64,000 nt of DNA from Omnitrophica WOR_2 bacterium GWF2_43_52 (GTDB taxonomy: Bacteria; Omnitrophota; Gorgyraeia; Gygaellales; UBA12090). The DNA is taken from assembly GCA_001805445.1 (NCBI GenBank), contig MHGF01000003.1:54736-118735 (forward strand), written 5' to 3'. The translations under genes and the position numbers were made by a program. Positions within the stretch are counted from its first letter, which is position 1. Every line of letters begins with the position of its first letter. Under the pieces are notes generated by a model. The model had not been told where the DNA came from and did no database searches. It saw only the letters and a program-made list of their open reading frames with translations. Of the stretch, positions 3,009 to 56,694 are shown one piece after another.

Positions 3009-3019
3009 ATGAGGTTTCA

Positions 3020-4087: not shown

Positions 4088-4090
4088 TAA

Positions 4091-12062: not shown

Positions 12063-12077
12063 CAAAGGAGATGATAC

Positions 12078-13067: not shown

Positions 13068-13096
13068 CTTCTTCTATTGATGAGGTATCAGAGACG

Positions 13097-13798
13097 TTGG
13101 AAAAACAGATCTTAGCGTTTGTGCCCGCCCGGGGGGGGTCAAAAAGGCTTCCCGGGAAAAATATCAAACTTTTAGGTGGCATTCCGTTATTAGCCTATTC
13201 CTTAATCGCGGCGCTGAATTCGCGCATCATTACTAAAATTGTGCTTTCGAGCGATGATGATACAATGCTTGCTATTGGTGGTCACTATGGCCGGATTGAA
13301 GGTATCCGCCGTCCCGATAGCCTATCAGATGATAAAGCGACGACGCTTTCTGCCATAGCGCATTGCCTAGAGTATTTAGAAGTCCATCAGGCATATCGGC
13401 CGGATATCGTAGTCTTATTGCAACCAACCTGCCCTTTCAGAGAAAATGGCTATATTGACGCTGCGATTAATTGTTTTTTAGAGTCAGATGCTCATTCTTT
13501 GATTGGTGTATGCGAAGAAAAATATAAACTCGGTGAAATACGCGGTAAGTATTTTTATCCTCAGTATAAAGAAGGCACGCGTAAGCAAGATATGCCGGCT
13601 GTATACCGGGAAAATGGGTCAATTTACATCAGTAGGAGCCATATAATAAAAGAAGGCACGTTATTCGGGAAAAAGATACTCCCCTACCTTGGCAATAAAT
13701 TTAATGCGGTAAATATTGATACACAGCTTGATTTTGATAGTGCGGAAATGATTTTAGAAAAATACGCTGACCAATTTAAAGGAGGCGCGATACAATGA
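13097..13798 (+). CDS. Acylneuraminate cytidylyltransferase family (CMP-nonulosonic-acid synthetase; NeuA/PseF/LegF-like)
   Basis: 'AFVPARGGSKRLPGKNIKLLGGIPLL' matches the NeuA/PseF 'PARGGSKG.P.KN' motif. The KdsB motif 'PARYASTR' is absent. The size is 233 aa. A G8 homopolymer lies inside the catalytic motif at 13131-13138. Confidence 0.8.
   Translation: MEKQILAFVPARGGSKRLPGKNIKLLGGIPLLAYSLIAALNSRIITKIVLSSDDDTMLAIGGHYGRIEGIRRPDSLSDDKATTLSAIAHCLEYLEVHQAYRPDIVVLLQPTCPFRENGYIDAAINCFLESDAHSLIGVCEEKYKLGEIRGKYFYPQYKEGTRKQDMPAVYRENGSIYISRSHIIKEGTLFGKKILPYLGNKFNAVNIDTQLDFDSAEMILEKYADQFKGGAIQ
13131..13138 (+). repeat. Poly-G homopolymeric tract (G8) within the catalytic 'PARGGSK' motif codons of the CMP-NulO synthetase gene
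   Basis: I read 'cccgcccGGGGGGGGtcaaaa' directly. Tracts of G7 or longer are rare in this roughly 40% GC sequence. Confidence 0.9.
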
Positions 13799-14820
13799 AA
13801 AGGATAAAAATTGATAATCACTGGATAGGTGAAAGATGCCCTGTGTTTATTATCGCTGAGGCAGGAATTAACCATAATGGTGACTATCGAAAAGCCCTTG
13901 AACTTGTTGACGCGGCGGCTGAATGCGGAGCAGACGCAGTCAAGTTTCAGACTCACCTTCCAGAACACGAAATGCTGCGTGAGGGATTTAGCGCAGGCTA
14001 TATTGGGCAATCGTTTTTTGATTTATTGAAAAAGTGCCAGTTAAGCGAAATTGACCATCTGCGCCTCATGCAGAGAGCAAAGAAAAAAAAGATAATGTTT
14101 CTTTCTACGCCTTTTAGCCGAGAGGCGGTAGATTTTTTGGATAGGATAGGCATTGCAGCATTTAAAACCGGATCCGGTGAATTGACAAATATACCGCTTC
14201 TAGAACATATCGCTAAAAAGAATAAACCTATGATAATTTCTACAGGAATGAGCAGTATGACGGAAATAGGGAATACCGTAAAAGCGATAACAAAGTTGAA
14301 TAAAGAAATTATCCTGATGCAATGTACATCTACTTATCCGGCTGAATATAAGAATATCAATTTAGCAGTAATAAAAATACTAAAAAAGCGTTTTGGTTTT
14401 CCTGTGGGGCTCTCAGATCATTCTTATGGTATGTATACCGCGCTAGGCGCAGTGGCTTTGGGCGCGGCAATGATAGAGAAGCATTTCACTCTCAATAGGT
14501 CATGGCCTGGCCCTGACCAAAAGGCATCAATTACACCTCGGGAACTGCAGGAATTAGTACGCGGCACAAAGGCTTTGCAGCAGGCATTGGGGAACAAAAA
14601 GAATATCCTCAGGGAGGAGATCCCCGTTCGCAAAATGGCGAATGAAAGCGTTGTTTCTTTGCGCGACATAAATGCCGGCGAAAGGCTGACGCTTAGCAAT
14701 GTTTGGGTCAAACGCCCCGGGACAGGAATCCCTGCCGCCAGCTTAAAAAATGTTATCGGCAGAAGCGCACGGAAACAAATTCGCATTAATTCGCTGATAA
14801 AATGGAGTGATTTACAATGA
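13795..14820 (+). CDS. N-acetylneuraminate synthase family (NeuB/PseI/LegI), with C-terminal SAF domain
   Basis: 'VFIIAEAGINHNGDYRKALELVDAAAECGADAVKFQT' is the classic NeuB N-terminus. 'LSDHS' is present. The C-terminal SAF-like segment is '...RDINAGERLTLSNVWVKRPGTGIPA'. Confidence 0.85.
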   Translation: MKRIKIDNHWIGERCPVFIIAEAGINHNGDYRKALELVDAAAECGADAVKFQTHLPEHEMLREGFSAGYIGQSFFDLLKKCQLSEIDHLRLMQRAKKKKIMFLSTPFSREAVDFLDRIGIAAFKTGSGELTNIPLLEHIAKKNKPMIISTGMSSMTEIGNTVKAITKLNKEIILMQCTSTYPAEYKNINLAVIKILKKRFGFPVGLSDHSYGMYTALGAVALGAAMIEKHFTLNRSWPGPDQKASITPRELQELVRGTKALQQALGNKKNILREEIPVRKMANESVVSLRDINAGERLTLSNVWVKRPGTGIPAASLKNVIGRSARKQIRINSLIKWSDLQ

Positions 14821-15971
14821 AAAAAAAGAGGATTTGTATTGTAACTGCGAATCGCGCAGAATATAGCCGTGTAAAAACAGTACTTGAGGCAATTAGCAAA
14901 AATCAAAAATTAGAATATATACTCATAGTTATCGGTTCTCATTTGTTGCGCAAATACGGAAATACCTATCGAGAAATAGAGCGCGATGGTTTTACTATTC
15001 ACGAACGCATTTATAATACAATAGAAGGGGAAAATCCTGTTACCATGGCTAAATCAGCGGGTTTTGCCATAATAGAATTAGCAACTCTTTTAGACAGCTA
15101 TAAGCCTGATTTTGTAGTAGTTCTTACCGATAGATATGAAACCTTAAGCGCTGCTGTTACGGCTGCCTTTTTAAATATTCCTGTAGCTCATATTCAGGGT
15201 GGAGAAGTTACAGGGACAATAGATGAAAGCATAAGGCACGCGGTAACTAAGTTCGCGCATGTTCATTTCGCCGCTAGCGAAGCAAGTAGGCAGAGAATTA
15301 TCAAGTTGGGAGAAACTCCTGAATTCGTGTTTAATGTAGGCTGCCCTGCTACAGATTTGCTGCTGCGTGCAAAAATACTACGGCAAAAAGAGGTCCTTAC
15401 TAATGAGGAGATCAAAAATCCGCATATAAAAGCAAATGACCCGTTCATTGTAGTATTACAGCATCCGGTTACTACAGAATTCGGCGAGGGGTATTCCCAA
15501 ATAGAAGAAACATTGTATGCGATAAAAGATTTCGGAATGCAGACGATAATGCTTTGGCCTAATGTTGATGCCGGAAGCGAGCATATTGTAACTGCCATAA
15601 GAAGATTTTTAGAAGAATATCGATTGAGGAATATTTTTATGTACCGTCATATTACTAATAGCCTTTTTATACAGTTATTGTATCACTGTAAATGTTTAAT
15701 TGGGAACTCCAGCTCTGGTATCAGGGAAAGCTGTTATTTCGGCACTCCGGTAGTTAATATCGGCACCCGTCAACATGGCCGTGAACGCGGCAAGAATGTA
15801 GTAGATGTTGGGTATGGGCGTCACTTGATACTTAAGGCAATTAAAAAACAAGTTAGCCATGGGCGTTACCCCCGAGAGAATGTTTTTGGCAAAGGGGATG
15901 CCGGTAGGAAAATTGCCGATATTTTATCAACAATAAACGGGATTAAAGTACAGAAGATTATAACGTATTAG
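14817..15971 (+). CDS. UDP-N-acetylglucosamine 2-epimerase (hydrolysing), NeuC/LegG-like
   Basis: 'RICIVTANRAEYSRVKTVLEAI...LEYILIVIGSHL' is typical of the NeuC N-terminus. The GT-B-like epimerase fold motifs are 'DRYETLSAAVTAAFLNIPVAHIQGGE' and 'IGNSSSGIRE'. Confidence 0.8.
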   Translation: MKKKRICIVTANRAEYSRVKTVLEAISKNQKLEYILIVIGSHLLRKYGNTYREIERDGFTIHERIYNTIEGENPVTMAKSAGFAIIELATLLDSYKPDFVVVLTDRYETLSAAVTAAFLNIPVAHIQGGEVTGTIDESIRHAVTKFAHVHFAASEASRQRIIKLGETPEFVFNVGCPATDLLLRAKILRQKEVLTNEEIKNPHIKANDPFIVVLQHPVTTEFGEGYSQIEETLYAIKDFGMQTIMLWPNVDAGSEHIVTAIRRFLEEYRLRNIFMYRHITNSLFIQLLYHCKCLIGNSSSGIRESCYFGTPVVNIGTRQHGRERGKNVVDVGYGRHLILKAIKKQVSHGRYPRENVFGKGDAGRKIADILSTINGIKVQKIITY

Positions 15972-15975
15972 AAAA

Positions 15976-17325
15976 ATGATTAATCAGTTAAGACTATTCA
16001 TAGTTCAGATGCGCTACACGATAAAGCCTTTTTTTTACTTACCCATTACATTTTTAAGGCGCGTTGTTTTTGGCAGAGACGCGCATCTCAAACAGTACTT
16101 TTGGGACAAATGGGGTTTTTTAGACAAACATATGAATGATATTTTAAGCGGAGCGGAGAGTATCCTCTGGATAGATGTTGCTTCCGGTGGAGAAATTTTA
16201 CAATTAGTGAGCTTCCTTCGCTTGTTAAAGAAGCATCATAAAGGTTTAAAGATAGTCCTTTCAACGGCAAGCGATGATGCATATGCGTATGCGGAAAAAT
16301 TAGACACAATAGATTTTGTTTTTAATACTCCGTGGGATTTTGCCTTTGTTGCCAGGCGCGCCTTAAGGCAGGTCAACCCAAACCTTTTTATCAGTGTTGA
16401 ATTTACCCGGATCCCAAAACACTTTTTAACTGCTCAGAGCCTTAGAGTTAAAACCTTGCTTCTGAGCGGATTGATGAGCTGCCGTATGCAGGAACATCCG
16501 ACCTTAGAGCGTACGTACGCGCTTAATGCGTATCATTTTTTTGATTTTATAGCTGCCAAAGAGAATCGTGATTATGAAGGATTCGCGGCGTTAGGTATAG
16601 AGCGTAGCAAGATAGTGCGCTTAGGCAACATGAAGTTTGATACAGGTTTTTTAGATATCAAAGAAAGCCAGATATCCACCTTAAGAGATGTTTTTGCCCT
16701 TAACCCTGGGCAAAAAATATTTCTTGCAGCAAGTGTATTCTCGCCGGAAGAGGAAATAGCTATTGATGCCTTTAGGAAAGCTAAAGCTGTAATCCCGAAT
16801 CTGCGCCTGATTATTGTCCCGCGTTTTACTAAATATATACCAGGAATTGTCGATTATTTAAAACACCATGATTTTTCATATATATTGCGTACAGAGCTTC
16901 CAAAGCGAGATAACGCGGAGGGGCTTAACGATACGGTCGTCATCGTTGATACATTCGGTGAATTAGTGAAATTGTATCATTTAGCTGATTATATTTTTTT
17001 AAGCGGCAGTATCTATCCAGTAAATAAAATAGGTGGCGGCAAGAATATCGTAGAGCCTTTAGCAAGTAAAAAACCCATATTCTTTGGCCCGCACATGCGT
17101 TATTGGCAGGAAATCACGCAGCCCCTGATGTCAATTTACCAAGCATTGGAGGTTCGTAACGCGGATGATTTAGCCACTGGTATAATAGACTTAAGCAGGA
17201 GGCCGGATATACAAAATGCGTTAAGGGATAAGGCCATTGAGTTATTGCATCAATATACTGATGTGATAAGCGATAATGTGCGTTTTGTAGAGACGATACT
17301 CTACAATGGGAAGGTAGCTGCATGA
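15976..17325 (+). CDS. GT30-family glycosyltransferase (3-deoxy-D-manno-octulosonic-acid transferase / WaaA-like)
   Basis: 'ILWIDVASGGEILQLVSFLRLLKK' parallels the WaaA 'WIHxxSVGE...P' acceptor-domain motif. 'LGNMKFD' parallels WaaA 'GSLKFD'. The GT-B C-domain is 'IVDTFGELVKLY'. The size is 449 aa. Confidence 0.6.
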   Translation: MINQLRLFIVQMRYTIKPFFYLPITFLRRVVFGRDAHLKQYFWDKWGFLDKHMNDILSGAESILWIDVASGGEILQLVSFLRLLKKHHKGLKIVLSTASDDAYAYAEKLDTIDFVFNTPWDFAFVARRALRQVNPNLFISVEFTRIPKHFLTAQSLRVKTLLLSGLMSCRMQEHPTLERTYALNAYHFFDFIAAKENRDYEGFAALGIERSKIVRLGNMKFDTGFLDIKESQISTLRDVFALNPGQKIFLAASVFSPEEEIAIDAFRKAKAVIPNLRLIIVPRFTKYIPGIVDYLKHHDFSYILRTELPKRDNAEGLNDTVVIVDTFGELVKLYHLADYIFLSGSIYPVNKIGGGKNIVEPLASKKPIFFGPHMRYWQEITQPLMSIYQALEVRNADDLATGIIDLSRRPDIQNALRDKAIELLHQYTDVISDNVRFVETILYNGKVAA

Positions 17326-18323
17326 GTGCCCCGGTAATTCTTAACGACGGCTCTATGCATCTTTCCTTTGGGAGAAATTGCGTAAATAAATTTATCCGCT
17401 ATAGCGCACCTTTATTTGTAAAAGCCATGCTGGCGCGCAAGAAATATATTGCCCCGATTTTCTCACGCGACCTATACGCGCGCATTGAATTAACTAATGC
17501 CTGTAACTATCGATGTTCATTTTGCCCCCACGGCAGTATGAAGCGCAAACTTGGCATTATGGATAATGTTTTGTACAGAAAAATTATCGACGATTGCCTC
17601 GCCAGCGGTATCCGTAAAATAAATTTGACAAGTTACGGTGAGTCGTTGTTAGACCCGGATGTGCTGGAAAAAATAAGATATGCAAAAGAGACGGGGGCTG
17701 ACTACGTTTATCTTACTACCAATGGCTCGCTTCTTGATCAAGAAAAGTCTAAAGCAGTTATCGCGCTTGGAGTTGATGAAGTGCGCGTTAGTATCGACGC
17801 GATATCAGCGGATGAATATTCAGAGGTGCGCTCTGAATACAATTACGATACCGTTTTAAAGAATATTTCGTTTTTGCTCCAAGCCAAAAAAGCAGACAAA
17901 TCCAAAACGCCGATTGTAACAGTATGTTTTATTCAACGCCGGGACAATGAAAAAGATGCAAAAGAATTTATAAAAAACTGGGAAGAGAAAGCCGACGTGA
18001 TACATTTGCAGGCTTTCCATAATTGGGCGGCACGTATTGAAGATAAGGAACCGGGCTCCTTTGTCCCCTGTAAACGCCTATGGTATACCTTAAATATTTT
18101 TTGGGACGGCCGTGTAGGGTTATGTTGCGCGGATACAGAAGGCCAATATATTCTGGGAGATTTTCGTTATAATTCTTTAACGGAAATCTGGAATGGTGAG
18201 AAATTTCAGGAGGCACGAAAGCGTAATTTACATAATGATAAGGATTTTATTTGCAGCCGCTGTAGTCTTCCAATGCGAGATAGCATGCTTTGGATAAAAA
18301 AGATGCTCACGGCAAAAAACTAA
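17322..18323 (+). CDS. Radical SAM enzyme with C-terminal SPASM/twitch-like auxiliary cluster domain, paralog A
   Basis: The Cx3Cx2C motif is 'CNYRCSFCPHG'. The C-terminal Cys cluster is 'WDGRVGLCCADTEG...CSRCS'. The size is 333 aa. Confidence 0.8.
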   Translation: MSAPVILNDGSMHLSFGRNCVNKFIRYSAPLFVKAMLARKKYIAPIFSRDLYARIELTNACNYRCSFCPHGSMKRKLGIMDNVLYRKIIDDCLASGIRKINLTSYGESLLDPDVLEKIRYAKETGADYVYLTTNGSLLDQEKSKAVIALGVDEVRVSIDAISADEYSEVRSEYNYDTVLKNISFLLQAKKADKSKTPIVTVCFIQRRDNEKDAKEFIKNWEEKADVIHLQAFHNWAARIEDKEPGSFVPCKRLWYTLNIFWDGRVGLCCADTEGQYILGDFRYNSLTEIWNGEKFQEARKRNLHNDKDFICSRCSLPMRDSMLWIKKMLTAKN

Positions 18324-18332
18324 CAAATACCT

Positions 18333-19424
18333 ATGGAAATTAAATTTATTGGCGCACGAATTAAAGAGATATGCCATAAGATTAAGAAACGTGGGGTGAG
18401 CTGGGGCATTAAACGCATGCTGGCGAATATGGGGCGTTGGTTAAAAGAATCGACACAAAGTGTTTTCTCATTTATTGCAGATGCCCGTCGTAATGGCTTT
18501 CGCTGTGCCTATGCTAATCGCAGTGTTGAGCGGCGCTTCCACTCTTTAATCAAAGAATCTTATTATTACAGTACGTTGCGGATTCCTGCCCCCTATCCTG
18601 TCCATGCCCATATTGAAGTAACTTCCTTATGTAATTTGACTTGTTCGATGTGCCCGCGCGCAAACCTGCAGAGGGAGCAGGGGGCAATGAGTTTTGATGT
18701 ATTCCGTAAAATTATAGATAAATTGGCATTAGCGCGCCTGCCCAATACTTTATTTTTGCATTTCACCGGAGAACCCCTGCTAAATGATGATTTACCGATG
18801 ATGATTCGTTATGCCAAGGATAAAGGTGTGCCATGGATAAAATTTAATACCAATGCCGTTTTTTTGGATGAGAAAAAAAGCATGCAAATTATCGACTCCG
18901 GCCTTGATTGCCTGGTTTGCGCCTTAGAAATGAATAAAGAGCAGGAGGCACTACTGCGTCCTGGCGCGGATTATGCGGCAGTCGCATCAAACATTGAAAA
19001 ATTCATGAAACTAAAAAAGAAATCAAAAGCCACAAAACCTCTTGTAAAGCTACAGATGCTGGTAACAAAAGAAAATCAAGGATTTAAAACTCAAGCGTAT
19101 AATCGCTGGAAAAATACCGTTGACCGGGTTGAATTCCACCCATTACACACCGTTGGCGGTTTAGTTGATGACTTAGGCGCAACTAATCTTAAACGTTCCC
19201 ACTGCGAGCAGGTCTGGGTTTCGCTTATTTTTCTTTGGAATGGAGATGTGGTGCCGTGTTGTTTTAACCATGATGCTTCCTTGCGACTCGGTAATATACT
19301 TACAGATTCGTTTGAGGCGATTTGGCACAATGACTTTATCAACAAATTAAGGGAGCAGGATCGCGTAGGCGTGTATTCGAATCCTGTTTGTCGTCGATGC
19401 ATGGTTCAAGGTGCGAGCTATTAA
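18333..19424 (+). CDS. Radical SAM enzyme with SPASM/twitch-like domain, paralog B
   Basis: The Cx3Cx2C motif is 'CNLTCSMCPR'. The C-terminal cluster is 'WNGDVVPCCFNHD...CRRCM'. It has the same 'W-[DN]-G...CC' signature as paralog A. Confidence 0.8.
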   Translation: MEIKFIGARIKEICHKIKKRGVSWGIKRMLANMGRWLKESTQSVFSFIADARRNGFRCAYANRSVERRFHSLIKESYYYSTLRIPAPYPVHAHIEVTSLCNLTCSMCPRANLQREQGAMSFDVFRKIIDKLALARLPNTLFLHFTGEPLLNDDLPMMIRYAKDKGVPWIKFNTNAVFLDEKKSMQIIDSGLDCLVCALEMNKEQEALLRPGADYAAVASNIEKFMKLKKKSKATKPLVKLQMLVTKENQGFKTQAYNRWKNTVDRVEFHPLHTVGGLVDDLGATNLKRSHCEQVWVSLIFLWNGDVVPCCFNHDASLRLGNILTDSFEAIWHNDFINKLREQDRVGVYSNPVCRRCMVQGASY

Positions 19425-19610
19425 AAAATGATGAGCAATGCTCGAAAAACCCAAAGTGAACGCTTCCTCATTTTTCGGGTGCAGAAGCATATAGATTTGG
19501 TCATTACAGCTATTACAGTTTTAACGGACTTTTAATCATAGCAAAAAACCATTTTTTTGCACCAGCATGGTCTTTTGAGGTAGTGTGCTCTAAGCGTATG
19601 ATTTCTACAC

Positions 19611-21083
19611 ATGAGTAGTGTTAAAAAGAAATTGTTTACAGGAAGTATATACAAATTCATCTCTAATATAATAGTAGTCGCATTAGGGTTGCTCACTTCT
19701 ATCGCAGTCAATCGCATGTACGGAAAGGAAAAATATGGCCTGCTTGTTATAGCCTTTACCATAACCAGCTTTTTCTCCGGATTCACCAACTTAGGAGCAA
19801 AAGCTACGCTAAATAAAATCATTCCTAAGCTGAAAACGAGCAAGGATAGAACACAGGATGTCACTGCTATCATTATTACCGGATCAATTTTAGTTTTTTG
19901 TGGAGCTTCTATTGTTGGGCTTTTGCTTTATCTTTCGAGGAACATTATCATAGGTTTTTATAACTTGCCTCATTTTTTGCCAGTACTTATAGCAAGTGTA
20001 TTCTATTTATTTTTCTTCTCTATTTTAGACTTCATCTTCTCGGTGTATCAAGCATTTCAAGATTGGGTTAAAGAGAGCTTGCTTAGCGTACTTTATCCCT
20101 TATTCTATTTAGTGCTGATAGGGATATCTTTTTGTCTATTCCGTAAAGGCATAGAAACAGTTTTGTATTCCAATATTATATCTGCGTTTTTTATTTCTGG
20201 AGTAGGTATTTTTTACTTAAAAGAACATCTCAATTTAAGAAAAATCAATAAATATGACTATGCTTCATTTAAGAGCACATCTCATGAATTTATAAAATTC
20301 GGAATTCCACTCCTTATCCCCCAGGCAAGCGCTTTGTTGGTAATGTGGGCGGACAAATTGATTCTTGGAAAATATGCAAGTATCGCCGAGCTTTCGTTAT
20401 ATTATATAGCGTATAGCTTCATAACTGGCTTGCTGATATTTATAAAAACAATATTCACTATCGCCATGCCTTATTTTGCCGAATTTCATACTATGGATTC
20501 ACTCAAGAATAAGTTCGATATTTTTTTCAAACTGAATATCTATTTATCCATGTTTATTTCTTTGTCTATGTTTGTTTTAATCGATCGTATTGTTACCCTG
20601 ATGTATGGAGGCGGATATGAAAAGGTGGGTTTACTTTTTAAATTTATGATCCCTCTTATTTTTATGAAGTCTTTGCTCTTGGCTCCTGCTGTTTTTATGC
20701 AAAATGTATATTCTATGGTCAAGGTAATTAACATTGGAGGCATTCTATTAGGCGCCACAGATATTCTGATGTGTATTTTTTTAGTGCCGCGTTATGGAGC
20801 TATCGGAGCAGTAGTGTCGGTTTTAGGAGCTCATTTTTTATATACTTGCTGGCTGTTCTTGCTAATCCCTGCTATTAGAAAATTGATTCCGTTTAGAAGT
20901 ATTATTAATGCTCTACTGATATCTATAGTATTGATATCAGTTTATTATTTGATGTTCGCGTTTAAACTAAACAGCATTCTTTTGTTACTTACAGTCCTTA
21001 CCTCATTATTCTTTATTTTTTTGTTTGTATGCCGTGAAGATCGTTTCATTCTGCAGATTGCAGGGAAGGCATTTAGGGCCTAA
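19611..21083 (+). CDS. Wzx-like polysaccharide/O-unit flippase (MOP/polysaccharide biosynthesis protein family), copy 1
   Basis: It is 490 aa and very hydrophobic, with about 12-14 predicted TM segments throughout. This is typical of the family. A second such gene at 51100 supports the call by context. Confidence 0.6.
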   Translation: MSSVKKKLFTGSIYKFISNIIVVALGLLTSIAVNRMYGKEKYGLLVIAFTITSFFSGFTNLGAKATLNKIIPKLKTSKDRTQDVTAIIITGSILVFCGASIVGLLLYLSRNIIIGFYNLPHFLPVLIASVFYLFFFSILDFIFSVYQAFQDWVKESLLSVLYPLFYLVLIGISFCLFRKGIETVLYSNIISAFFISGVGIFYLKEHLNLRKINKYDYASFKSTSHEFIKFGIPLLIPQASALLVMWADKLILGKYASIAELSLYYIAYSFITGLLIFIKTIFTIAMPYFAEFHTMDSLKNKFDIFFKLNIYLSMFISLSMFVLIDRIVTLMYGGGYEKVGLLFKFMIPLIFMKSLLLAPAVFMQNVYSMVKVINIGGILLGATDILMCIFLVPRYGAIGAVVSVLGAHFLYTCWLFLLIPAIRKLIPFRSIINALLISIVLISVYYLMFAFKLNSILLLLTVLTSLFFIFLFVCREDRFILQIAGKAFRA

Positions 21084-21142: not shown

Positions 21143-22702
21143 ATGCGGCGTGTTATTTTAATTCATCCCTATTATAACTATTACGAAAGCTATCCGTTGG
21201 GTTTAGCTTATTTGAGTGCGGTGTTAAAGCAACAGCGAAAATGTGATGTCCAGGTTATTGATTGCTCGGCTCCTTTCAATCGCCTTACAGATAATGATGT
21301 TTATTCGATGATAAAAAATTTTAAGCCCGACATTATAGGGATATACATTAATGTTTATCAGGCTCTCAATGCTTATAAGCTTGCGGCGTTGGCAAAAAAT
21401 TTCGGCGTACCTATTATTGCTGGCGGCCCACACGTTTGCGCTGTCCCAGAGGAAGTATTAGGAAAAGGCTTTGATATTGCGGTAAAGGGGGAGGCAGAGG
21501 AAACCATTATAGATATACTTGATTGGCTCGATGGTTTAAAAAGGTTAGACTCGATCCCTGGGATTTTTTTTAAGGATGGGGGCAAGATACTGGCGACACG
21601 CGAGCGAAAAGGCCCTTCAGATTTGAGTTTGCTTCCCCTGCCAGACCATGATCAATTTCCCTTATCGCACTATTACAGCAGCGCCCAACAGGTAAAGAAA
21701 GAGTTTTATTTCAAAATATCTTCAAGCCGGGGGTGCCCTTTTAGCTGTATTTTTTGCGCCCTTGTGGGAGGGCATACTTTTAGGGCAAAGAAATCATCGT
21801 TAGTAGTTGAAGAAATAAGGCACTACGTAGATAAATATGGAATCAAGTATTTAACCTTTATTGATCCGGCTTTTACGGTCAGCCGGCAGAGGGTTCATGA
21901 ATTATGCGATCTGCTTATTGCTGAACCAAAGATTAAAATAAAGTGGTGCATTGATACGCGCGTAGATATGGTTGATAGAAACCTTTTACAAAAGATGGCG
22001 GCTGCCGGATGCACAGGCATAATTTATGGGGTAGAGAGTGGAAGCGATGAGACTCTAAAAAAAATCCACAAAGGATTTACTCTAAATCAAGTAAATCATG
22101 CCCTTGAGTGGACGCAAAGCTTAGGTATTTCCGTGTCTATTAATTCTATTGTTGGTTTCCCATGGGAAAAAAAATCCCATATTGAGGATACAAAGAGAAT
22201 ACTACGGTCTTACGCGAAGAAATTGAACCTGGTGCCGACGTATAACGTGCCGATTCCTTATTCGGGCACTTTGCTATATGACGAGTATCATAAACAGTAC
22301 GGATTTACAAATTGGTGGCTTGACTCTTCGTATAGTTATAATATTAAACCCATAAATGGCAGGACTCCTTATTTTTTCCGTGCCACCCCCTATCTTGACC
22401 ATTTTATGCTAAAAAAGAATTTTTTTAACTACAGTCCGCTATTCTCTCAGTATATTTACCGTACTTTAATCGGAAACTGTCTCTATATCAAAAGAGAAAG
22501 TGAAGGATGGTTGAGGACTTATTTTCTCTTTTTGATCGGTAATCTTTCCCTTTGCTTATGTAATATCAACCCAAAACTGGAATACATCTGTGTATCGTGG
22601 CTTGAATCAGAATCCCTGCGTTCTTTTCGCAGGTTTATCAATTGTTTAAGCCTGTTTATTAAAAATTTGTTCCACAGTGCCGGTTCCCGGAATAAAAAGT
22701 AG
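21143..22702 (+). CDS. B12-binding-domain radical SAM enzyme (class B), paralog 1
   Basis: The N-terminal 'ILIHPYYNYYESYPLGLAYLSAVL...IIGIYINV' is a cobalamin-binding Rossmann domain. 'GEAEETI' is present. The radical SAM motif is 'CPFSCIFC' (Cx3Cx2C). The size is 519 aa. Confidence 0.8.
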   Translation: MRRVILIHPYYNYYESYPLGLAYLSAVLKQQRKCDVQVIDCSAPFNRLTDNDVYSMIKNFKPDIIGIYINVYQALNAYKLAALAKNFGVPIIAGGPHVCAVPEEVLGKGFDIAVKGEAEETIIDILDWLDGLKRLDSIPGIFFKDGGKILATRERKGPSDLSLLPLPDHDQFPLSHYYSSAQQVKKEFYFKISSSRGCPFSCIFCALVGGHTFRAKKSSLVVEEIRHYVDKYGIKYLTFIDPAFTVSRQRVHELCDLLIAEPKIKIKWCIDTRVDMVDRNLLQKMAAAGCTGIIYGVESGSDETLKKIHKGFTLNQVNHALEWTQSLGISVSINSIVGFPWEKKSHIEDTKRILRSYAKKLNLVPTYNVPIPYSGTLLYDEYHKQYGFTNWWLDSSYSYNIKPINGRTPYFFRATPYLDHFMLKKNFFNYSPLFSQYIYRTLIGNCLYIKRESEGWLRTYFLFLIGNLSLCLCNINPKLEYICVSWLESESLRSFRRFINCLSLFIKNLFHSAGSRNKK

Positions 22703-35546: not shown

Positions 35547-35558
35547 GGTTTCTAAAGT

Positions 35559-36299: not shown

Positions 36300-36317
36300 T
36301 GAGAGAGGAGTAAATAT

Positions 36318-40769: not shown

Positions 40770-40836
40770 TTTACAGTAAATTAAAAATTAACCTTTTCCT
40801 GCCTTTTAGGGAAAAGACAAGCGGGTATCAATGCCA

Positions 40837-52685: not shown

Positions 52686-53876
52686 ATGAATAAATTAGAA
52701 GGCCTCGATATAGTCTGTTTATCTACATCAGCCTGGGATTATCCTTTCGGAAGCAAGCAGAATATCATGAATAGGCTTTCAAAAGAAAATAGGATACTAT
52801 ATATCGAATCTCAACTCTCAATTTTACATGTTTTTAAATACCCTCTTTTATTCTTCAGCAGGGCAAAAGATTTTCTAAAAGGCTTGTGGCATCCGTATGC
52901 TGCGAACAAAAATATCATTGTATTTTCACCCCCGCCTATTTTTCTTCCTTTCGATACCTATTCTTTACACATCAATGCTTTTAATCAAAAAATACTGCTT
53001 CTGTTATTAAAGTGCGTTTTTAAAAGAATCGGCTTCCGCCCAGTCATCCTTTGGGCTTTTCATCCACGCAGCGCTCAATTATGCGGAAGATTAAATGAAA
53101 GGCTTTCGATTTATCATGGCATTGACGAGTACTCTGTAGAGAAAACCAGCAAATCAAGAAAAAATGTCTTAGAGATACTGGAAAGCGAGATACTCGCAAA
53201 AGTTGACATTGTCTTCCTTTGCAGCAAAGAGTTATGCAAATTAAAAAGTAAATTGCGTCCTGACGCGATATTTCTGCCTCCCGGAGGAGATTTTGCGCGT
53301 TTTGCTCATAACGCGCATAAATATGCCATACCAGCGGATATCAAAGAAATACGCCCTCCCAGGATTGGTTTCGCGGGCAGCCTTGACAGACGAATTGATG
53401 CAGGGCTTATCTCTGCCGTCGCTCAGAGAAATCCACATTGGTCAATAATCTTGATCGGAAATAACCGCTTGAGCACCGAAGAAAATAAGCTGCTTAGCAA
53501 ATCGAGCAATATTTATTTCTTAGGTTTTAAAAATAGGAATGATATCCCTGCCTACATTCATGCGTTAGATATTTGCATATTACCTTATTTTATTGATGAA
53601 TTCACCAAGTTTATATTCCCTTTAAAATTATTTGAGTGCCTTGCATCAGGTAAACCTATAGTTTCTACAGCGCTTGCGGATTTAGAGGCTTATAGCAATT
53701 ACATACACGTTTGCCGGACATATAATGCTTTTATTCAGGCAATACAAGCCTCTCTAACTAACGTACAGGATGGGCAGGCAGAACGGACAATGTTGGCGGA
53801 GGAAAACTCTTGGGATATCAGGGTCAAAGAAGCCGCGGGAATAATCATACAGAAGCTGAGTAAAAGTAATGTTTAA
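52686..53876 (+). CDS. Glycosyltransferase (GT-B, GT4-like); paralog of the N-domain of ORF 58168
   Basis: The N-terminal 'IVCLSTSAWDYPFGSKQNIMNRLSKENRILYIES' aligns with 'IICISSIDWEFIWQGHQEIMAVFAKNGNRILFIEN' of ORF 58168. The C-terminal 'LFECLASGKPIVSTALADL' is a GT-B donor-binding region. Confidence 0.55.
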   Translation: MNKLEGLDIVCLSTSAWDYPFGSKQNIMNRLSKENRILYIESQLSILHVFKYPLLFFSRAKDFLKGLWHPYAANKNIIVFSPPPIFLPFDTYSLHINAFNQKILLLLLKCVFKRIGFRPVILWAFHPRSAQLCGRLNERLSIYHGIDEYSVEKTSKSRKNVLEILESEILAKVDIVFLCSKELCKLKSKLRPDAIFLPPGGDFARFAHNAHKYAIPADIKEIRPPRIGFAGSLDRRIDAGLISAVAQRNPHWSIILIGNNRLSTEENKLLSKSSNIYFLGFKNRNDIPAYIHALDICILPYFIDEFTKFIFPLKLFECLASGKPIVSTALADLEAYSNYIHVCRTYNAFIQAIQASLTNVQDGQAERTMLAEENSWDIRVKEAAGIIIQKLSKSNV

Positions 53877-54876
53877 GCGAAAAATAAGAAAAGCAGCCTT
53901 ACAATGCGGAAATTACATTTTCCCGCTTTTCCCATCAATCCTCATACATCGGCTTCCTCGTACTCTCGTCATTGAACCGACCAATGTCTGTATGTTACAC
54001 TGTAGGGCCTGCGCCACTGTAAATAATCCTGTTCGAGAAAAAGGGTACATGCCTCTAAGTCTTTTTAGAAAGATCTTGCGCCAGATTGATTGGGATTTAA
54101 AGACCATAAATTTTTCCTATGCCGGAGAACCACTTTTGAATAGAGACATTTTTAAAATGATAAAACTTGCGAATGAAAAACGGTTGCGTTCTAATATTGA
54201 GACAAATGGCATGCTTCTGGAAGAACGGGCTGACGAGATCCTAGATTCCGGGCTCTGCAAACTCAACATAGCTTTTGACGGCATCTCGCAGGATAGCGTT
54301 TCAAAATATAGAAAAGGCATCGATTTTACCAGAGTGATTTCAGGAATAAACCATCTCGTCCAAAAAAAGAAAAAACTCGCTTTGAGGTTTCCGGAAATAC
54401 ACCTGCAGTTCATAGTCATGAAACATAATGAACTTGAGATTCCCGAAGCTATGCGCATCGCACAAAGAATCGGAGTTGAATCAATAGATTTTAAGTCTTT
54501 TATATTAACCGGTGGCATATGGCTTAACCGTCAGGGGATCAACGCTTTCGCAGAGGAATATTTACCAAAAAATGAGAAATTTAGCAGATACTCCTTACAA
54601 GGCAGATCATGGGTTTTGAAAAAACATCTGCAAGGAGTATGCCCGTATGCTTTTTCAGCGATGGTAATTATGTGGGATGGTAACGTGACAGCATGCACCA
54701 TGGATGTTAACGGAGACTACATTGTCGGCAACCTCAACCGTGAGCGCCTGAGGGATATTTGGCTGAGCAATAATTATACGGAATTACGAAAAAACATTTT
54801 AACAAAGAAGGCCCCGCAATGCAAAGAGTGCGCGTATCTCGTTGACCATTTTATCGACATGAGGACAGGAAAATAA
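53869..54876 (+). CDS. Radical SAM enzyme with SPASM/twitch-like domain, paralog C
   Basis: The Cx3Cx2C motif is 'CMLHCRAC'. The C-terminal cluster is 'WDGNVTACTMDVNG...CKECA'. It has the same W-D-G signature as ORFs 17322 and 18333. Confidence 0.8.
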   Translation: MFKRKIRKAALQCGNYIFPLFPSILIHRLPRTLVIEPTNVCMLHCRACATVNNPVREKGYMPLSLFRKILRQIDWDLKTINFSYAGEPLLNRDIFKMIKLANEKRLRSNIETNGMLLEERADEILDSGLCKLNIAFDGISQDSVSKYRKGIDFTRVISGINHLVQKKKKLALRFPEIHLQFIVMKHNELEIPEAMRIAQRIGVESIDFKSFILTGGIWLNRQGINAFAEEYLPKNEKFSRYSLQGRSWVLKKHLQGVCPYAFSAMVIMWDGNVTACTMDVNGDYIVGNLNRERLRDIWLSNNYTELRKNILTKKAPQCKECAYLVDHFIDMRTGK

Positions 54877-54882
54877 AATCAT

Positions 54883-56694
54883 ATGTGCGGAATATTCGGA
54901 GTAATCAATAAAAACGCTGTGGCAATAGATAAAGATTTAGTGAGTAAGGCCTTATCTACGCTTTCCCACAGGGGGCCGGACGATGAAGGGGTTTATTTTA
55001 ATAGTATTAACTCAGTAGCTCTAGGCCATAGAAGGTTGTCGATTATTGATGTTTCACCTGCAGGCCGTCAGCCTCTCAGCAATGAAGACGAAAGCATATG
55101 GTTGGTTTTAAACGGGGAAATATATAATTATGAGTCGTTAACAATGGATCTAAAAAAGAGAGGGCATACTTTTAAGAGTAATTCGGATACGGAAGTAATT
55201 ATTCATCTTTATGAAGAGCGTGGCATTAGCTGTGTCAGCAGTTTAAGAGGCATGTTTTCTTTTGCTTTATGGGACAGTAAGAAAAATCAGTTATTTTTGG
55301 TAAAAGATAGGGTGGGGAAAAAACCTCTGTTTTATTTTGACAATAGCAAGGCTCTCGTTTTTTCATCTGAGTTAAAATCTATTTTACTTTACAATAAAAA
55401 CACCGCATCTTTGAATTACAATGGCCTGCTTCAATATCTTAACTACTTTTATATTGCCGCGCCTCAGACAGCTTTTAATGAAATAAAAAAACTTATTCCT
55501 GGCCATATCTTATCCATAAAAAACGGAGAGTTAAAAATAGAAAGGTATTGGACCCCTGACTATAACAATAAAATAAACATTGATTTTACTGAAGCAAAGA
55601 AACGAGTCAGAGAATTAGTGATAGAGGCAGTAAAGCTCCGGATGATAAGTGATGTTCCTGTGGGAGCTTTTATTAGCGGGGGTTTAGATTCATCGATTGT
55701 CACAGGGATAATGAGTTCAATAAGCAGCAAGCCCATAAAAACTTTTTCTGTGGGATTCAAAAATAAAGAATTAAATGAACTACCTTATTCAAGAATTATC
55801 GCCAATCATTACCGATGCGATCATCACGAACTCGTTTTAAACGCTGATTGTATCGAGGCCTTACCACGATTGATTGAGAACTTTGGGGAACCTCATGCGG
55901 ATTCCTCGGCTTTAGCAACCTACTGTTTGTCGAGCCTTGCCAAAAAATATATTTCGGTCACTTTAATTGGTGAGGGAAGTGATGAACTTTTCGCCGGTTA
56001 CAAGAGATACGCATTCTATAGGGTTCTGCGCCGGATACAATTCCTGCCTGATTGGTTCAAGACTATATTTCATTTAAACCTTAAGCCGCGTTATAAAAAG
56101 TGGATTGGAGTTTTCCCTGAGCCTGTAAAAAGCAATCTATTCCAGGCTACTTTCTTAGAAAGATGTCTCGGAGAAGATGTTGATGCAGAACTATTTAAGA
56201 TTATGGATTATGCCGACAGGTTTAAAGGCGTTGATTCCGCCCTTTATACCGATCTAAATTATTTTCTCCCCTACGATTTGCTCATCAAAGTAGACGTTGC
56301 CACGATGTCCCACGGTGTAGAAGCAAGGGCGCCTTATCTTGATCAACAGATAATAGAATTTACCGGCTCCTTACCTGAAAACTGGAAATTACACGGACGT
56401 ACATTTAAGTATATATTAAAAGAAGCCTTTAAAGATTTACTCCCGCAAAAAATAATGGAAAGAGAAAAAACTGGTTTTATAGTTCCGGTAAACCACTGGT
56501 TTAGAAACGAATTGAAGGATTACTTGAGAGATATTTTATTATCAGACAAAGCCAAGAGCAGAGGCTATTTTAACCCTAAAAAGGTTGAAGAATTGATTGG
56601 CGAACACATAAAAAGTAAGCATAATTACGGACATCAGCTGTGGACATTATTGATTTTCGAATTATGGCACAGGATCTTTGTAGACCGAGGCTGA
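54883..56694 (+). CDS. Asparagine synthetase family amidotransferase, paralog 3
   Basis: The start is 'MCGIFGV'. 'LGHRRLSIIDVS' and 'LVLNGEIYNY' follow. The PP-loop is 'GAFISGGLDSS'. Confidence 0.85.
   Translation: MCGIFGVINKNAVAIDKDLVSKALSTLSHRGPDDEGVYFNSINSVALGHRRLSIIDVSPAGRQPLSNEDESIWLVLNGEIYNYESLTMDLKKRGHTFKSNSDTEVIIHLYEERGISCVSSLRGMFSFALWDSKKNQLFLVKDRVGKKPLFYFDNSKALVFSSELKSILLYNKNTASLNYNGLLQYLNYFYIAAPQTAFNEIKKLIPGHILSIKNGELKIERYWTPDYNNKINIDFTEAKKRVRELVIEAVKLRMISDVPVGAFISGGLDSSIVTGIMSSISSKPIKTFSVGFKNKELNELPYSRIIANHYRCDHHELVLNADCIEALPRLIENFGEPHADSSALATYCLSSLAKKYISVTLIGEGSDELFAGYKRYAFYRVLRRIQFLPDWFKTIFHLNLKPRYKKWIGVFPEPVKSNLFQATFLERCLGEDVDAELFKIMDYADRFKGVDSALYTDLNYFLPYDLLIKVDVATMSHGVEARAPYLDQQIIEFTGSLPENWKLHGRTFKYILKEAFKDLLPQKIMEREKTGFIVPVNHWFRNELKDYLRDILLSDKAKSRGYFNPKKVEELIGEHIKSKHNYGHQLWTLLIFELWHRIFVDRG

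Follow-up and report, generated by a model that had tools for sequence, protein, structure and literature searches.

The paralogous genes A, B, and C encode BtrN-like radical SAM enzymes with a C-terminal twitch domain that, on balance, probably work on carbohydrate intermediates in the making of a cell-surface glycan of the LPS/O-antigen type. It is likely that their substrate is a sugar of one kind or another, and sugar radical chemistry is suggested both by their location in a surface-glycan cluster and by their being most like the few radical SAM enzymes that act on sugars. As to the specific chemistry, BtrN-type dehydrogenation of an alcohol to a ketone is a tentative assignment and the most likely of the reactions, with epimerization as its main rival. 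Everything past the domain architecture we infer from homology and gene neighborhood.

All three genes lie on the plus strand of the 64-kb stretch of DNA analyzed here (the window), as do the features given below unless stated otherwise. As delineated from ORFs and Pfam matches, A spans 17322..18323 (333 aa), B 18333..19424 (363 aa), and C 53869..54876 (335 aa), with scores of 43-65 bits to Radical_SAM (A, 64.9; gathering cut-off 29.5) and 53-54 bits to SPASM (A, 53.8; gathering cut-off 21.5). The ORFs that the original prediction had taken for radical SAM proteins were recovered with their starts at 17322, 18333, and 53869, their CX3CX2C motifs, and their Pfam matches, and the proposed HMM scan confirmed a radical SAM plus a SPASM/twitch domain in each. 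Judged by their sequences, they are homologous far beyond chance and are old paralogs, with identities of 27% for A-B (E 2e-35), 28% for A-C (6e-26), and 26% for B-C (1e-24). Each carries a basic N-terminal extension (about 90 aa in B), which is predicted to be helical in the AF2 models of A (pLDDT 91.5) and C (pLDDT 91.0).

The alignment places the CX3CX2C motif of the radical SAM cluster at C61/C65/C68 in A (17502..17525), C100/C104/C107 in B (18630..18653), and C41/C45/C48 in C (53989..54012); it is invariant among the three, and each of its cysteines occurs in 94-95% of 123 aligned homologs. In the C-terminal region, A has C250, C268, C311, and C314 as invariant positions along with a nonconserved C269 (18069..18263), B has C291, C309, C353, and C356 along with an extra C310 (19203..19400), and C has exactly four cysteines, C258, C276, C318, and C321 (54640..54831). 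These four are conserved in 100% of the 123 homologs and no others are invariant, which indicates a one-cluster twitch domain rather than a full SPASM domain, which typically holds two auxiliary clusters (PMC13012085). Thus, despite the Pfam SPASM match, the C-terminal domain is, by its cysteine pattern, a twitch with a single auxiliary cluster, and of the earlier "SPASM/twitch" label only the latter half applies in full. In the AF2 model of A, residues 256-266 of this region fold into a beta-hairpin, and helices come after it at 286-313. The C-terminal signature said to be shared by the paralogs needs similar trimming: what A, B, and C truly have in common is W-[DN]-G-x-V-x-x-C ... C-x-x-C plus one upstream cysteine, whereas B reads F-L-W-N-G in place of [IV]-[FM]-W, and the "CC" is confined to A (L-C-C) and B (P-C-C), with A-C-T in C. 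The second cysteine of this pair (C269 of A) is present in only 54% of the 123 homologs, and the CC motif, as far as the alignment goes, does not define the family.

Searches against solved structures point to BtrN. A family profile run against the PDB has BtrN at the top (E 3.8e-35, 124.6 bits), with both the core and the twitch domain aligned and with the four invariant twitch cysteines of A falling on the C-terminal cysteines of BtrN; SkfB (4.7e-19), MoaA (7.8e-17), BlsE (2.4e-14), DesII (7.1e-14), and anSME (1.4e-9) follow. The closest solved relative is, therefore, a carbohydrate-type twitch enzyme by a wide margin. BtrN is also the best single-sequence PDB match of A (1.7e-9), B (6.9e-14), and C (3.7e-11), and B aligns to BtrN residues 170-255 across its twitch domain. 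Other sequence matches include BlsE for C (4.9e-9) and, for A, AbmM (8wm2; 2.5e-8), a sugar-acting radical SAM enzyme (PMC12691670). In Foldseek searches, the first three distinct folds for the A model are BtrN (1.1e-13), DesII, and BlsE, all of them sugar-acting; for C they are BlsE (1.6e-13), SuiB (1.9e-12), and BtrN (3.1e-12), and since the peptide enzyme SuiB intervenes there, fold alone does not discriminate. The auxiliary cluster of BtrN, which carries out a two-electron oxidation, is Cys4 ligated and is thought to accept an electron, whereas in MoaA the cluster has three cysteines and the substrate binds at an open Fe site (PMC9012708, PMC10337720); the four invariant cysteines of the family match the BtrN arrangement.

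Gene neighborhoods provide the second line of evidence. The window is a single unidirectional glycan locus, and domain scans bear out the earlier description of the neighbors as sugar-nucleotide and glycosyltransferase genes. Upstream of A and B is a nonulosonic-acid (NulO) module (13097..15971; Pfam, NCBIfam) comprising a CMP-NulO synthetase (13097-13798; Pfam), a NeuB-type synthase (13795-14820; NCBIfam NeuB_NnaB 381.6 bits against a cut-off of 399.65, PseI model 292.7 bits), and a NeuC-type hydrolyzing 2-epimerase (14817-15971; NCBIfam NeuC_NnaA 412.6 bits, cut-off 235.9). Next comes a GT30-like glycosyltransferase gene of the Kdo-transferase fold (15976..17325; Pfam Glycos_transf_N, 89 bits), whose product reaches 170 bits with the best WaaA model (NCBIfam) versus a cut-off of 438 and is a candidate CMP-nonulosonate transferase. 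Its stop overlaps the start codon of A (ATGA), A and B are separated by 9 bp, and a Wzx-type flippase downstream of B (19611..21083; Pfam Polysacc_synt) marks the pathway as one of lipid-linked repeat-unit assembly. The order CMP-NulO synthetase–NeuB–NeuC–GT30-like–A–B is kept: orthologs of A and B adjoin each other in two other loci (L010, L011), together with NeuA/B/C and the GT30-like gene, at 57-59% identity. Synteny of the A/B pair with genes for nonulosonic acids spans three lineages. Given this association with a Neu/Leg-type module and a GT30-like transferase, A and B would most plausibly modify the nine-carbon sugar or a glycan that carries it, and action specifically on the NulO is a real possibility, if somewhat short of an even chance. 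The link is confined to the A/B orthogroup, with NeuB or CMP-NulO synthetase neighbors in only 1-3 of 80 loci of the wider family.

Paralog C belongs to a second sub-cluster, where it forms a conserved trio with a GT1/GT4-type glycosyltransferase directly upstream (52686..53876; Pfam), whose gene it overlaps by 8 nt at its 5' end, and an AsnB-like glutamine amidotransferase directly downstream (54883..56694; Pfam, NCBIfam), 6 bp past its stop. The order GT1–C–AsnB–GT1/DUF218–Wzy recurs in three further loci (L092-L094) at 48-60% identity; taken together, the A/B and C micro-syntenies persist at 48-62% identity. More broadly, the glycan context of the family is conserved across phyla: glycan-assembly genes occur within 10 kb in 72 of 80 species-representative loci, glycosyltransferases in 70, and B12-radical SAM genes in 33, although a single Acidobacteriota clade contributes about 30 of these loci, and the independent observations are therefore fewer than the counts suggest. 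In the Acidobacteriota, an NDP-sugar SDR epimerase/dehydratase gene stops 4 bp before the radical SAM gene, and fusions include one relative joined to a hexapeptide acyltransferase and others with tandem modules or a B12-radical SAM domain. With 17,885 clusters at 50% identity (E≤1e-30), this is a very large family without a characterized member.

On the BtrN-like reading, the [4Fe-4S] cluster on the N-terminal CX3CX2C motif would bind SAM and cleave it reductively, and the 5'-deoxyadenosyl radical so formed would abstract hydrogen at a sugar carbon of a cytoplasmic substrate, whether a nucleotide sugar or, before its flipping by Wzx, an oligosaccharide linked to undecaprenyl. An electron would then pass from the substrate radical to the one auxiliary [4Fe-4S] cluster, on the four invariant cysteines, as proposed for BtrN, turning a secondary alcohol into a ketone, and the keto-sugar could be aminated, epimerized, or otherwise decorated by the products of neighboring aminotransferase, amidotransferase, and methyltransferase genes. 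Several points weigh against this specific reaction. Closely similar radical SAM scaffolds carry out dehydrogenation, epimerization, decarboxylation, deamination, and S-for-O exchange, and the identity of BtrN to the paralogs in the fold searches, only 17-19%, is too low for transfer of reaction specificity. Moreover, GFO/IDH/MocA dehydrogenases encoded at 12078 and 43747 in the window could supply keto-sugars, and a radical dehydrogenase is thus not obviously needed.

The same scaffold and context evidence can be cited for sugar radical epimerases of the HygY/NeoN type, which we regard as unlikely but the most serious alternative to dehydrogenation. Here, the 5'-deoxyadenosyl radical would remove a carbinol hydrogen and a protein cysteine would return one on the opposite face, inverting one stereocenter of the NulO or another sugar in a redox-neutral cycle, with the auxiliary cluster serving only for structure or electron return. 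A single Cys mutation in HygY reportedly interchanges epimerase and dehydrogenase activity, and 4-epi- and 8-epi-legionaminic acid are epimeric nonulosonic acids that occur in nature. The extra nonligand cysteine after the second cluster ligand in A, B, and 54% of the family is a candidate hydrogen-atom donor, comparable to C223 of EpeE, an epimerase of the twitch type (PMC13012085), or to Cys249 of NeoN (PMC10991966). However, this residue is replaced by Thr in C and is absent from 46% of the family, and EpeE is a far weaker relative by the family profile (about 1e-9) than BtrN.

Other radical chemistries on sugars are a further step less probable; these include DesII/AprD4-like dehydration or deamination to deoxysugars, BlsE-like decarboxylation, AbmM-like sulfur insertion, and C-C bond formation yielding branched or higher-carbon sugars. 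BlsE is the best fold for C, DesII ranks within the first four distinct folds of either model, and AbmM matches A in sequence; the window, moreover, encodes six B12-radical SAM enzymes and a large number of methyltransferases, suggestive of a heavily and unusually decorated glycan. Nevertheless, in the profile search BtrN outranks BlsE and DesII by some 20 orders of magnitude in E-value, and the family keeps the Cys4 twitch cluster of BtrN.

That the three paralogs mature proteins or peptides, in the style of anSME, tungsten-enzyme maturases, or RiPP SPASM enzymes, is improbable; the target in that case would be a residue of a neighboring enzyme or an unannotated small peptide. This reading draws on the Pfam SPASM call, the second place of SuiB for C, and the best partial NCBIfam matches, TIGR04317 and TIGR04311, which are putative metalloenzyme maturases. 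All maturase models, however, stay far under their cut-offs (TIGR04317, 100-150 bits versus 380; anSME, 37.5 versus 349), and across the 93 family members scanned, which include A, B, and C, no protein reaches any curated NCBIfam cut-off, those of peptide maturases and anSME among them. The N-terminal extensions have no Pfam match to PqqD/RRE or anything else even at E≤10, and domain scans of the window found no sulfatase or tungsten oxidoreductase gene. As for a precursor, the overlapping or 6-9 bp junctions around the paralogs leave no room for its gene, and among 189 small-ORF candidates clustered from 35 loci, in a search of about 85, none is conserved next to family genes, although precursor peptides are short and variable and can escape clustering by sequence. 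The 35-aa Cys-free ORF at 19428-19535, which begins 4 nt past the stop codon of B, had been described as the only small ORF nearby and as lacking an RBS. It is indeed without an upstream Shine-Dalgarno-like sequence, but real genes such as B and the Wzx and GT30-like genes also lack a clear one, which makes this weak evidence, and a second tiny ORF, likewise unconserved, lies in the same gap (19421-19504, minus strand). The checks put forward in the original prediction all favored sugars, and the sugar-substrate interpretation is upheld by the proximity to BtrN, the glycan context across phyla, and the lack of a conserved precursor in these loci, with the fold search for C undiscriminating. 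Least probable of all is a lipid carrier or membrane lipid (polyprenol, hopanoid, or ether lipid) as the target, as with the radical SAM enzyme GDGT-MAS/Tes: in the PDB, GDGT-MAS matches B (6.3e-9) and the family profile (2.9e-16), four homolog loci (L001, L056, L076, L078) hold a twitch enzyme, a B12-radical SAM enzyme, PMT-type lipid-linked-sugar transferases, and little else, and the basic N-terminal extensions could sit on the membrane surface, yet the GDGT-MAS match is limited to the radical SAM core, the window has no genes for isoprenoid or lipid biosynthesis alongside the paralogs, and the tightest conserved partners of A, B, and C are the NulO module, glycosyltransferases, and the amidotransferase.

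Among known systems, AlbA, SuiB, CteB, PqqE, SkfB, and anSMEcpe share the superfamily and the Pfam SPASM match with A, B, and C and are found as folds at 1e-9 to 1e-12, but the full-SPASM maturases need more cysteines than the four conserved here (a 7-Cys pattern), and neither a nearby peptide or protein substrate gene, as these enzymes have, nor the RRE that they often carry turned up here. BlsE (cytosylglucuronate decarboxylase), DesII (TDP-4-amino-4,6-dideoxyglucose deaminase), and AbmM (thiosugar synthase) act on nucleotide- or nucleoside-linked sugars and are among the top-fold and significant sequence matches; these antibiotic-pathway enzymes are, however, far weaker in sequence (1e-13 to 1e-14 versus 1e-35 for BtrN), and nothing here speaks specifically for their reactions, namely decarboxylation, deamination, and S-for-O exchange. 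By their published descriptions, the aminoglycoside epimerases HygY and NeoN combine a BtrN-like scaffold and sugar substrates with a catalytic cysteine as hydrogen donor, and the spare twitch-domain cysteine of A and B, absent from C, is a lead in their direction. The closest parallel is BtrN itself (PDB 4M7T), the 2-deoxy-scyllo-inosamine dehydrogenase of the butirosin pathway, whose substrate is a small carbohydrate-like molecule and not a peptide. In contrast to BtrN, the paralogs are 60-110 residues longer with their basic N-terminal extensions, about 30 residues are inserted in C, a cysteine stands beside the second ligand in half of the family at the position of a Phe in BtrN, and the setting is a cell-surface glycan locus, which has no 2-DOI synthase, rather than an aminoglycoside antibiotic cluster. 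What they have in common with BtrN is the radical SAM core, the C-terminal twitch, and all four aligned cysteine ligands of its auxiliary [4Fe-4S] cluster.

The three genes proposed as paralogous radical SAM enzymes are all present on the forward strand, with the predicted starts: A at 17322-18323 (333 aa), B at 18333-19424 (363 aa), and C at 53869-54876 (335 aa). Each scores over the Pfam gathering cut-off for the radical SAM domain (PF04055; 43.1-64.9 bits across the three versus 29.5) and for the SPASM iron-sulfur domain. The CX3CX2C motif, which binds the SAM-cleaving [4Fe-4S] cluster in the radical SAM superfamily, aligns at C61/65/68 in A, C100/104/107 in B, and C41/45/48 in C, and across the 123 aligned homologs that we treat as the family its cysteines are 94-95% conserved. 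By their pairwise identities of 27% for A-B (E 2e-35), 28% for A-C (6e-26), and 26% for B-C (1e-24), they are clearly homologous, old paralogs; orthologs elsewhere are much closer, at 57-78% identity for A and 48-62% for C. The AlphaFold models of A and C (pLDDT 91.5 and 91.0) match radical SAM structures at probability 1.00 and display the predicted partial TIM barrel of that superfamily. The three proteins bear strongly basic N-terminal extensions, at residues 1-52 of A (17322-17477), 1-91 of B (18333-18605), and 1-31 of C (53869-53961), with 8, 19, and 7 K/R residues versus 2, 6, and 0 D/E residues, respectively. Those of A and C are helical in the models (two helices and a short strand in A, two helices in C), and the extensions may mediate contact with the membrane or with a protein partner. 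C also has an insertion of ~30-40 residues (C ~211-250; 54499-54618) between the core and the C-terminal domain, lacking in A and B and modeled as a helix plus a β-hairpin.

The C-terminal domain had been labeled SPASM/twitch, and it is the second half of this label that holds. SPASM domains reportedly have a pattern of seven cysteines, including CX2CX5CX3C, and two [4Fe-4S] clusters. CX2CX5CX3C is absent from A, B, and C and from the alignment of 123 homologs, where CX2C is present. Exactly four C-terminal cysteines are conserved at 100% in these homologs (C250, C268, C311, and C314 of A), with an invariant spacing of C-x17-C-x41-42-C-x2-C that matches, column for column, the C-terminal cysteines of BtrN, the sugar-type dehydrogenase of the butirosin pathway. 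The first two flank a predicted β-hairpin in the models of A and C. Because four invariant cysteines cannot build two auxiliary clusters, the domain fits not SPASM proper but the twitch domain, a truncated SPASM with a single auxiliary [4Fe-4S] cluster and four cysteine ligands (PMC9012708, PMC13012085). At the sequence level, A, B, and C thus have the features of the twitch subclass of the BtrN type, with a predicted cluster, and they still match the Pfam SPASM model because it also covers twitch domains. The proposed W-[DN]-G...CC signature likewise survives in part. The motif reads W-D-G-R-V-G-L-C-C in A, W-N-G-D-V-V-P-C-C in B, and W-D-G-N-V-T-A-C-T in C, so that W-[DN]-G and a cysteine are common to the three, and “CC” is confined to A and B. 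As the second cysteine is found in only 54% of the 123 family members and is missing from C, we rejected CC as a family signature. In all, A and B each have five C-terminal cysteines and C has four.

When a profile of 93 family members was searched against all PDB sequences, BtrN was recovered first (E 3.8e-35, 124.6 bits), with the core and twitch domains aligned and the four cysteines in register. The next matches were SkfB (4.7e-19), MoaA (7.8e-17), GDGT-MAS (2.9e-16), CteB (3.8e-15), and BlsE (2.4e-14), followed more weakly by PqqE (2.8e-14), DesII (7.1e-14), AbmM (4.9e-13), and anSME (1.4e-9). BtrN is also the best single-sequence match of A (1.7e-9), B (6.9e-14), and C (3.7e-11). Foldseek searches with the A model placed BtrN first (1.1e-13, TM 0.77 on target), then DesII and BlsE, and then anSME, CteB, and SuiB; the C model gave BlsE (1.6e-13), SuiB (1.9e-12), BtrN (3.1e-12), and DesII (3.3e-12). 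Thus, the fold alone leans toward the sugar enzymes with no clean split from the peptide enzymes, and we consider the sequence profile the stronger discriminator. No NCBIfam cut-off was reached by A, B, C, or any of the 93 members scanned, which argues against the tight clustering with characterized peptide-modifying families that would have spoken against a sugar substrate. The best partial match is TIGR04317, a putative maturase of a tungsten-cofactor oxidoreductase (122, 100, and 150 bits versus 380), and no neighbor of the aldehyde:ferredoxin-oxidoreductase type pertinent to that family was found.

By its predicted gene content, the window is one glycan-assembly locus. All 51 plausible genes lie on the forward strand over 64 kb (GC 39.8%), and long minus-strand ORFs occur only inside them; many genes overlap or sit <10 bp apart, and many have no recognizable Shine-Dalgarno (SD) sequence. 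The sugar-nucleotide and glycosyltransferase (GT) neighbors originally noted are confirmed by Pfam classification. The region 61-8661 codes for a Wzy_C protein, two GT9 heptosyltransferases, ManC, DegT, GT2, HAD, and an MGDG-synthase-like GT. The next, 10107-21083, contains an AsnB-like protein, a GFO/IDH/MocA oxidoreductase, a CMP-nonulosonic acid (NulO) synthetase, NeuB, NeuC, a GT30-like transferase, A, B, and Wzx. It is followed at 21143-42723 by B12-binding radical SAM genes, methyltransferases, GT4, GT2, PMT_2, a CotH/VTC/DUF4956 triad, a fusion of a B12-binding radical SAM domain to GT4, GT1, and AsnB. The last region, 43046-63992, leads through GFO, carbamoyltransferase, DegT, two methyltransferases, a B12-binding radical SAM protein, a Wzx-like protein, and GT1 to C, and from there through AsnB, another B12-binding radical SAM protein, GT1+DUF218, Wzy_C, and AsnB to a methyltransferase. 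NeuC passes its equivalog cut-off (412.6 bits versus 235.9), and NeuB scores 381.6 bits versus 399.65 for Neu5Ac synthase, with 292.7 bits for the same protein under the PseI model; these scores place the NulO pathway in the Neu/Leg type rather than the Pse type. The GT30-like transferase (15976-17325) has a Kdo-transferase fold; its score of 170 bits versus 438 for WaaA sets it apart from standard Kdo transferases. This score lies far under all WaaA cut-offs, yet the synteny of the gene with NeuA/NeuB/NeuC extends to three lineages, and CMP-activated nonulosonic acid, not Kdo, is the candidate substrate of the transferase.

The locus has further distinctive features. Its radical SAM genes number nine, namely A, B, C, and six of the B12-binding type (21143-22702, 27101-28564, 28561-29949, 37018-39672, 49650-51071, and 56696-58171). 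None of these six reaches an NCBIfam cut-off; the one at 56696 is nearest to the Sden_1168 P-methyltransferase family (309 bits versus 575), which suggests C- or P-methylation of the glycan. The 884-aa protein encoded at 37018-39672 is the fusion to a GT4-type glycosyltransferase, physically joining radical chemistry to glycosyl transfer. In the mid-locus triad (32604-37004), a VTC-domain and a DUF4956 protein accompany a 980-aa CotH kinase that has a right-handed β-helix. The locus also codes for four paralogs of the AsnB-type glutamine amidotransferase (10107-12062, 40831-42723, 54883-56694, and 61355-63232), which may place amide or amidino groups on acidic sugars; one lies just upstream of the NulO genes, as also in the related locus L010, and one directly after C.

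The proposal that A, B, and C are sugar-acting twitch radical enzymes is supported by each computational test that we ran, with the BtrN profile affinity, the lack of a matching maturase family or a precursor, and the glycan context all pointing the same way, and we regard a carbohydrate substrate as likely. The radical SAM cluster would cleave SAM, and the resulting 5'-deoxyadenosyl radical would take a hydrogen from a sugar carbon. The substrate would be a cytoplasmic glycan intermediate, as expected from the cytoplasmic location of radical SAM enzymes and from the use of Wzx/Wzy by the locus. In BtrN-type activity, a secondary alcohol undergoes two-electron oxidation and SAM is consumed stoichiometrically, and, by analogy, we tentatively favor dehydrogenation as the reaction. 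The fully Cys-ligated auxiliary cluster would act as the electron acceptor, giving a keto-sugar, on the precedent of the Cys4-ligated auxiliary cluster and two-electron oxidation of BtrN (PMC9012708, PMC10337720). The ketone could in turn be used by products of the many aminotransferase, amidotransferase, and methyltransferase genes of the locus. Sugar epimerization of the HygY/NeoN type is a possible, if doubtful, alternative, for which the spare cysteine in A and B is a candidate hydrogen donor comparable to C223 of EpeE (PMC13012085) and Cys249 of NeoN (PMC10991966). Some other radical chemistry on a sugar appears unlikely.

Protein or peptide maturation is considerably harder to sustain. 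The gene junctions leave no room for a precursor: the ATG of A overlaps the upstream stop, B begins 9 bp past A, and C shares 8 nt with the gene upstream and stops 6 bp short of the following one. The sole intergenic space beside the three genes (19425-19610) holds two tiny, unconserved singleton ORFs of 35 aa (forward strand) and 27 aa (minus strand). The former (19428-19535) is, as first described, Cys-free and devoid of an SD sequence, and it was rejected as a precursor on these points and as a singleton; the missing ribosome-binding site, noted in the original prediction, carries little weight because an obvious SD sequence is likewise absent for B, Wzx, and the GT30-like transferase. Clustering of 189 intergenic ORFs located ≤800 bp from family members in 35 loci yielded no conserved small ORF, the only clusters being those linking two closely related genomes (L055 and L079), and the claim that there is no recognizable precursor peptide thus gains firmer ground. 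Pfam, with its PqqD/RRE models, gives no match to any of the three N-terminal extensions even at E≤10; the structural look for an RRE covers the A and C models, and the 90-aa extension of B was covered by Pfam only. With neither an adjacent conserved precursor nor an RRE/PqqD match in Pfam, and with no maturase cut-off reached, a role as RiPP maturases is very improbable. Lipid modification is more improbable still.

The glycan context in which we place A, B, and C extends to other genomes. The window matches contigs of the groundwater metagenome PRJNA292723 and two MAG assemblies, and the closest named relatives are Candidatus Omnitrophota. The A orthologs of two loci (L010 and L011; 57-59% identity) keep the order CMP-NulO synthetase–NeuB–NeuC–GT30-like–A–B, with B orthologs adjoining them, and the C orthologs of three others (L092-L094; 48-60%) keep GT1–C–AsnB–GT1/DUF218–Wzy_C. 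The family-wide alignment has no conserved stretch of 7-10 residues; with a narrower alignment, distant homologs (30-41%) were found in at least 506 loci of species-representative genomes of Acidobacteriota, Aminicenantes, Elusimicrobia, Nitrospinota, Planctomycetia, Gemmatimonadota, Lachnospiraceae, Patescibacteria, DPANN archaea, and Methanosarcinales. Hosts with homologs in glycan loci (LPS, O-antigen, or capsule-type) include Acidobacteriota, Omnitrophota, Aminicenantes, Elusimicrobia, DPANN archaea, Patescibacteria, and Firmicutes. We scanned 80 fetched loci, ~30 of them from one Acidobacteriota clade, with profiles built from the Pfam-classified proteins of the window. A glycan-assembly gene lies within 10 kb in 72 of the 80 and a glycosyltransferase in 70, a B12-binding radical SAM gene occurs in 33, and a second twitch radical SAM gene in 30. 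The density of glycan genes does not decay within ±10 kb (2.8, 2.7, 1.7, and 3.7 genes per 10 kb), as these loci are glycan clusters throughout, and the census therefore shows co-location rather than enrichment against the genomic background. Within it, NulO genes accompany the A/B orthogroup only, not the wider family. An Acidobacteriota example reads, by Pfam, GT9, Capsule_synth-like, NDP-sugar SDR epimerase/dehydratase, twitch radical SAM, methyltransferase, Wzx, PMT, second twitch radical SAM, and B12-binding radical SAM, with the SDR gene ending 4 bp before the first twitch gene. GT9 was rejected as the immediate upstream neighbor in Acidobacteriota, this place belonging to the NDP-sugar SDR, preceded by Capsule_synth-like and then GT9. 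Counts of immediate-upstream gene classes are unreliable and were left unused, because stop-to-stop ORF calling is noisy in high-GC MAGs. The other sampled loci have a similar glycan theme. On a 3.59-Mb contig of a distant genome (ERZ21829562), two twitch and three B12-binding radical SAM genes alternate in a tight block (L001, 7546-15892) directly after SAM synthetase and SAH hydrolase genes, with PMT-type and GT2 transferases following; the block resembles a compact cassette for “radical glycan decoration”.

Searched exhaustively with the profile, 1.84 billion representatives yielded 17,885 clusters (50% identity) at E≤1e-30, the best 150 of which all score ≥314 bits. Among the proteins recovered are fusions with two or three twitch radical SAM modules per chain, the three-module proteins being 1,431-1,444 aa long. 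There is also a 1,927-aa protein that combines a B12-binding radical SAM domain with three such modules, and one member joins a hexapeptide acyltransferase to a twitch radical SAM module; P0122, P0124, P0125, and P0161 together represent the three-module, 1,927-aa, and acyltransferase forms. Such chains make tandem paralogs like A-B a recurring design.

A broader proposal, which we advance with low confidence, is that A and B convert a Neu/Leg-type NulO, or the glycoside transferred by the GT30-like enzyme, to an undescribed keto-, epi-, amino-, or branched NulO, that C and AsnB make a second unusual sugar, and that a very large BtrN-like clade brings radical chemistry to the cell-envelope glycans of many mostly uncultured phyla. 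Were this so, the NulO derivative and the second sugar would represent new structural classes with biosynthetic routes independent of oxygen, and radical-made sugars would occur in the surface glycans of many microbes, environmental and anaerobic, widening known glycan diversity. It would also supply a well-defined target for enzymology with conserved partners (the NulO genes and GT30-like transferase for A/B, GT1 and AsnB for C) and give annotators grounds to drop peptide-type “SPASM” maturase labels for such genes. Should the reading fail, A, B, and C would be uncharacterized accessory enzymes of a polysaccharide cluster. We found no literature linking radical SAM enzymes to nonulosonic acid pathways, none joining SPASM, radical SAM, polysaccharide biosynthesis, and glycosyltransferase, and no paper describing this family, in searches with thin coverage of subscription journals. 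Radical SAM genes within polysaccharide loci would not shock a specialist; taken together, the size of the family, its clean affinity to BtrN, and the conserved modules NulO–GT30–A–B and GT1–C–AsnB make a concrete and testable case that radical chemistry acts on the sugars of cell-envelope glycans.

Among known systems, A, B, and C share the twitch architecture and cysteine pattern of BtrN and would work like twitch enzymes of that type. However, at 17-19% identity to this 2-DOIA dehydrogenase and in a different pathway, they are its relatives, not its orthologs. BtrN orthologs occur with 2-DOI synthase and the BtrS aminotransferase (butirosin/2-deoxystreptamine), and no 2-DOI synthase is found among the Pfam-classified genes of the 64-kb window. 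MoaA differs in that its auxiliary cluster, with three cysteines, leaves an Fe site open for substrate (PMC9012708, PMC10337720), unlike the four invariant cysteines here. The defining features of SPASM maturases, anSME, and TIGR04317 are likewise lacking in A, B, and C; for anSME (TIGR03942), C scores 37.5 bits versus 349, A and B are absent among the 25 matches listed, and no sulfatase domain occurs in the 64-kb window. HygY and NeoN are known here from published descriptions. To our knowledge, the twitch radical SAM enzymes described as acting on sugars are a handful (BtrN, HygY, NeoN), all of them from antibiotic pathways. Our results point to a much larger sister family of BtrN-like twitch enzymes, with no characterized member, placed in primary surface-glycan biosynthesis.
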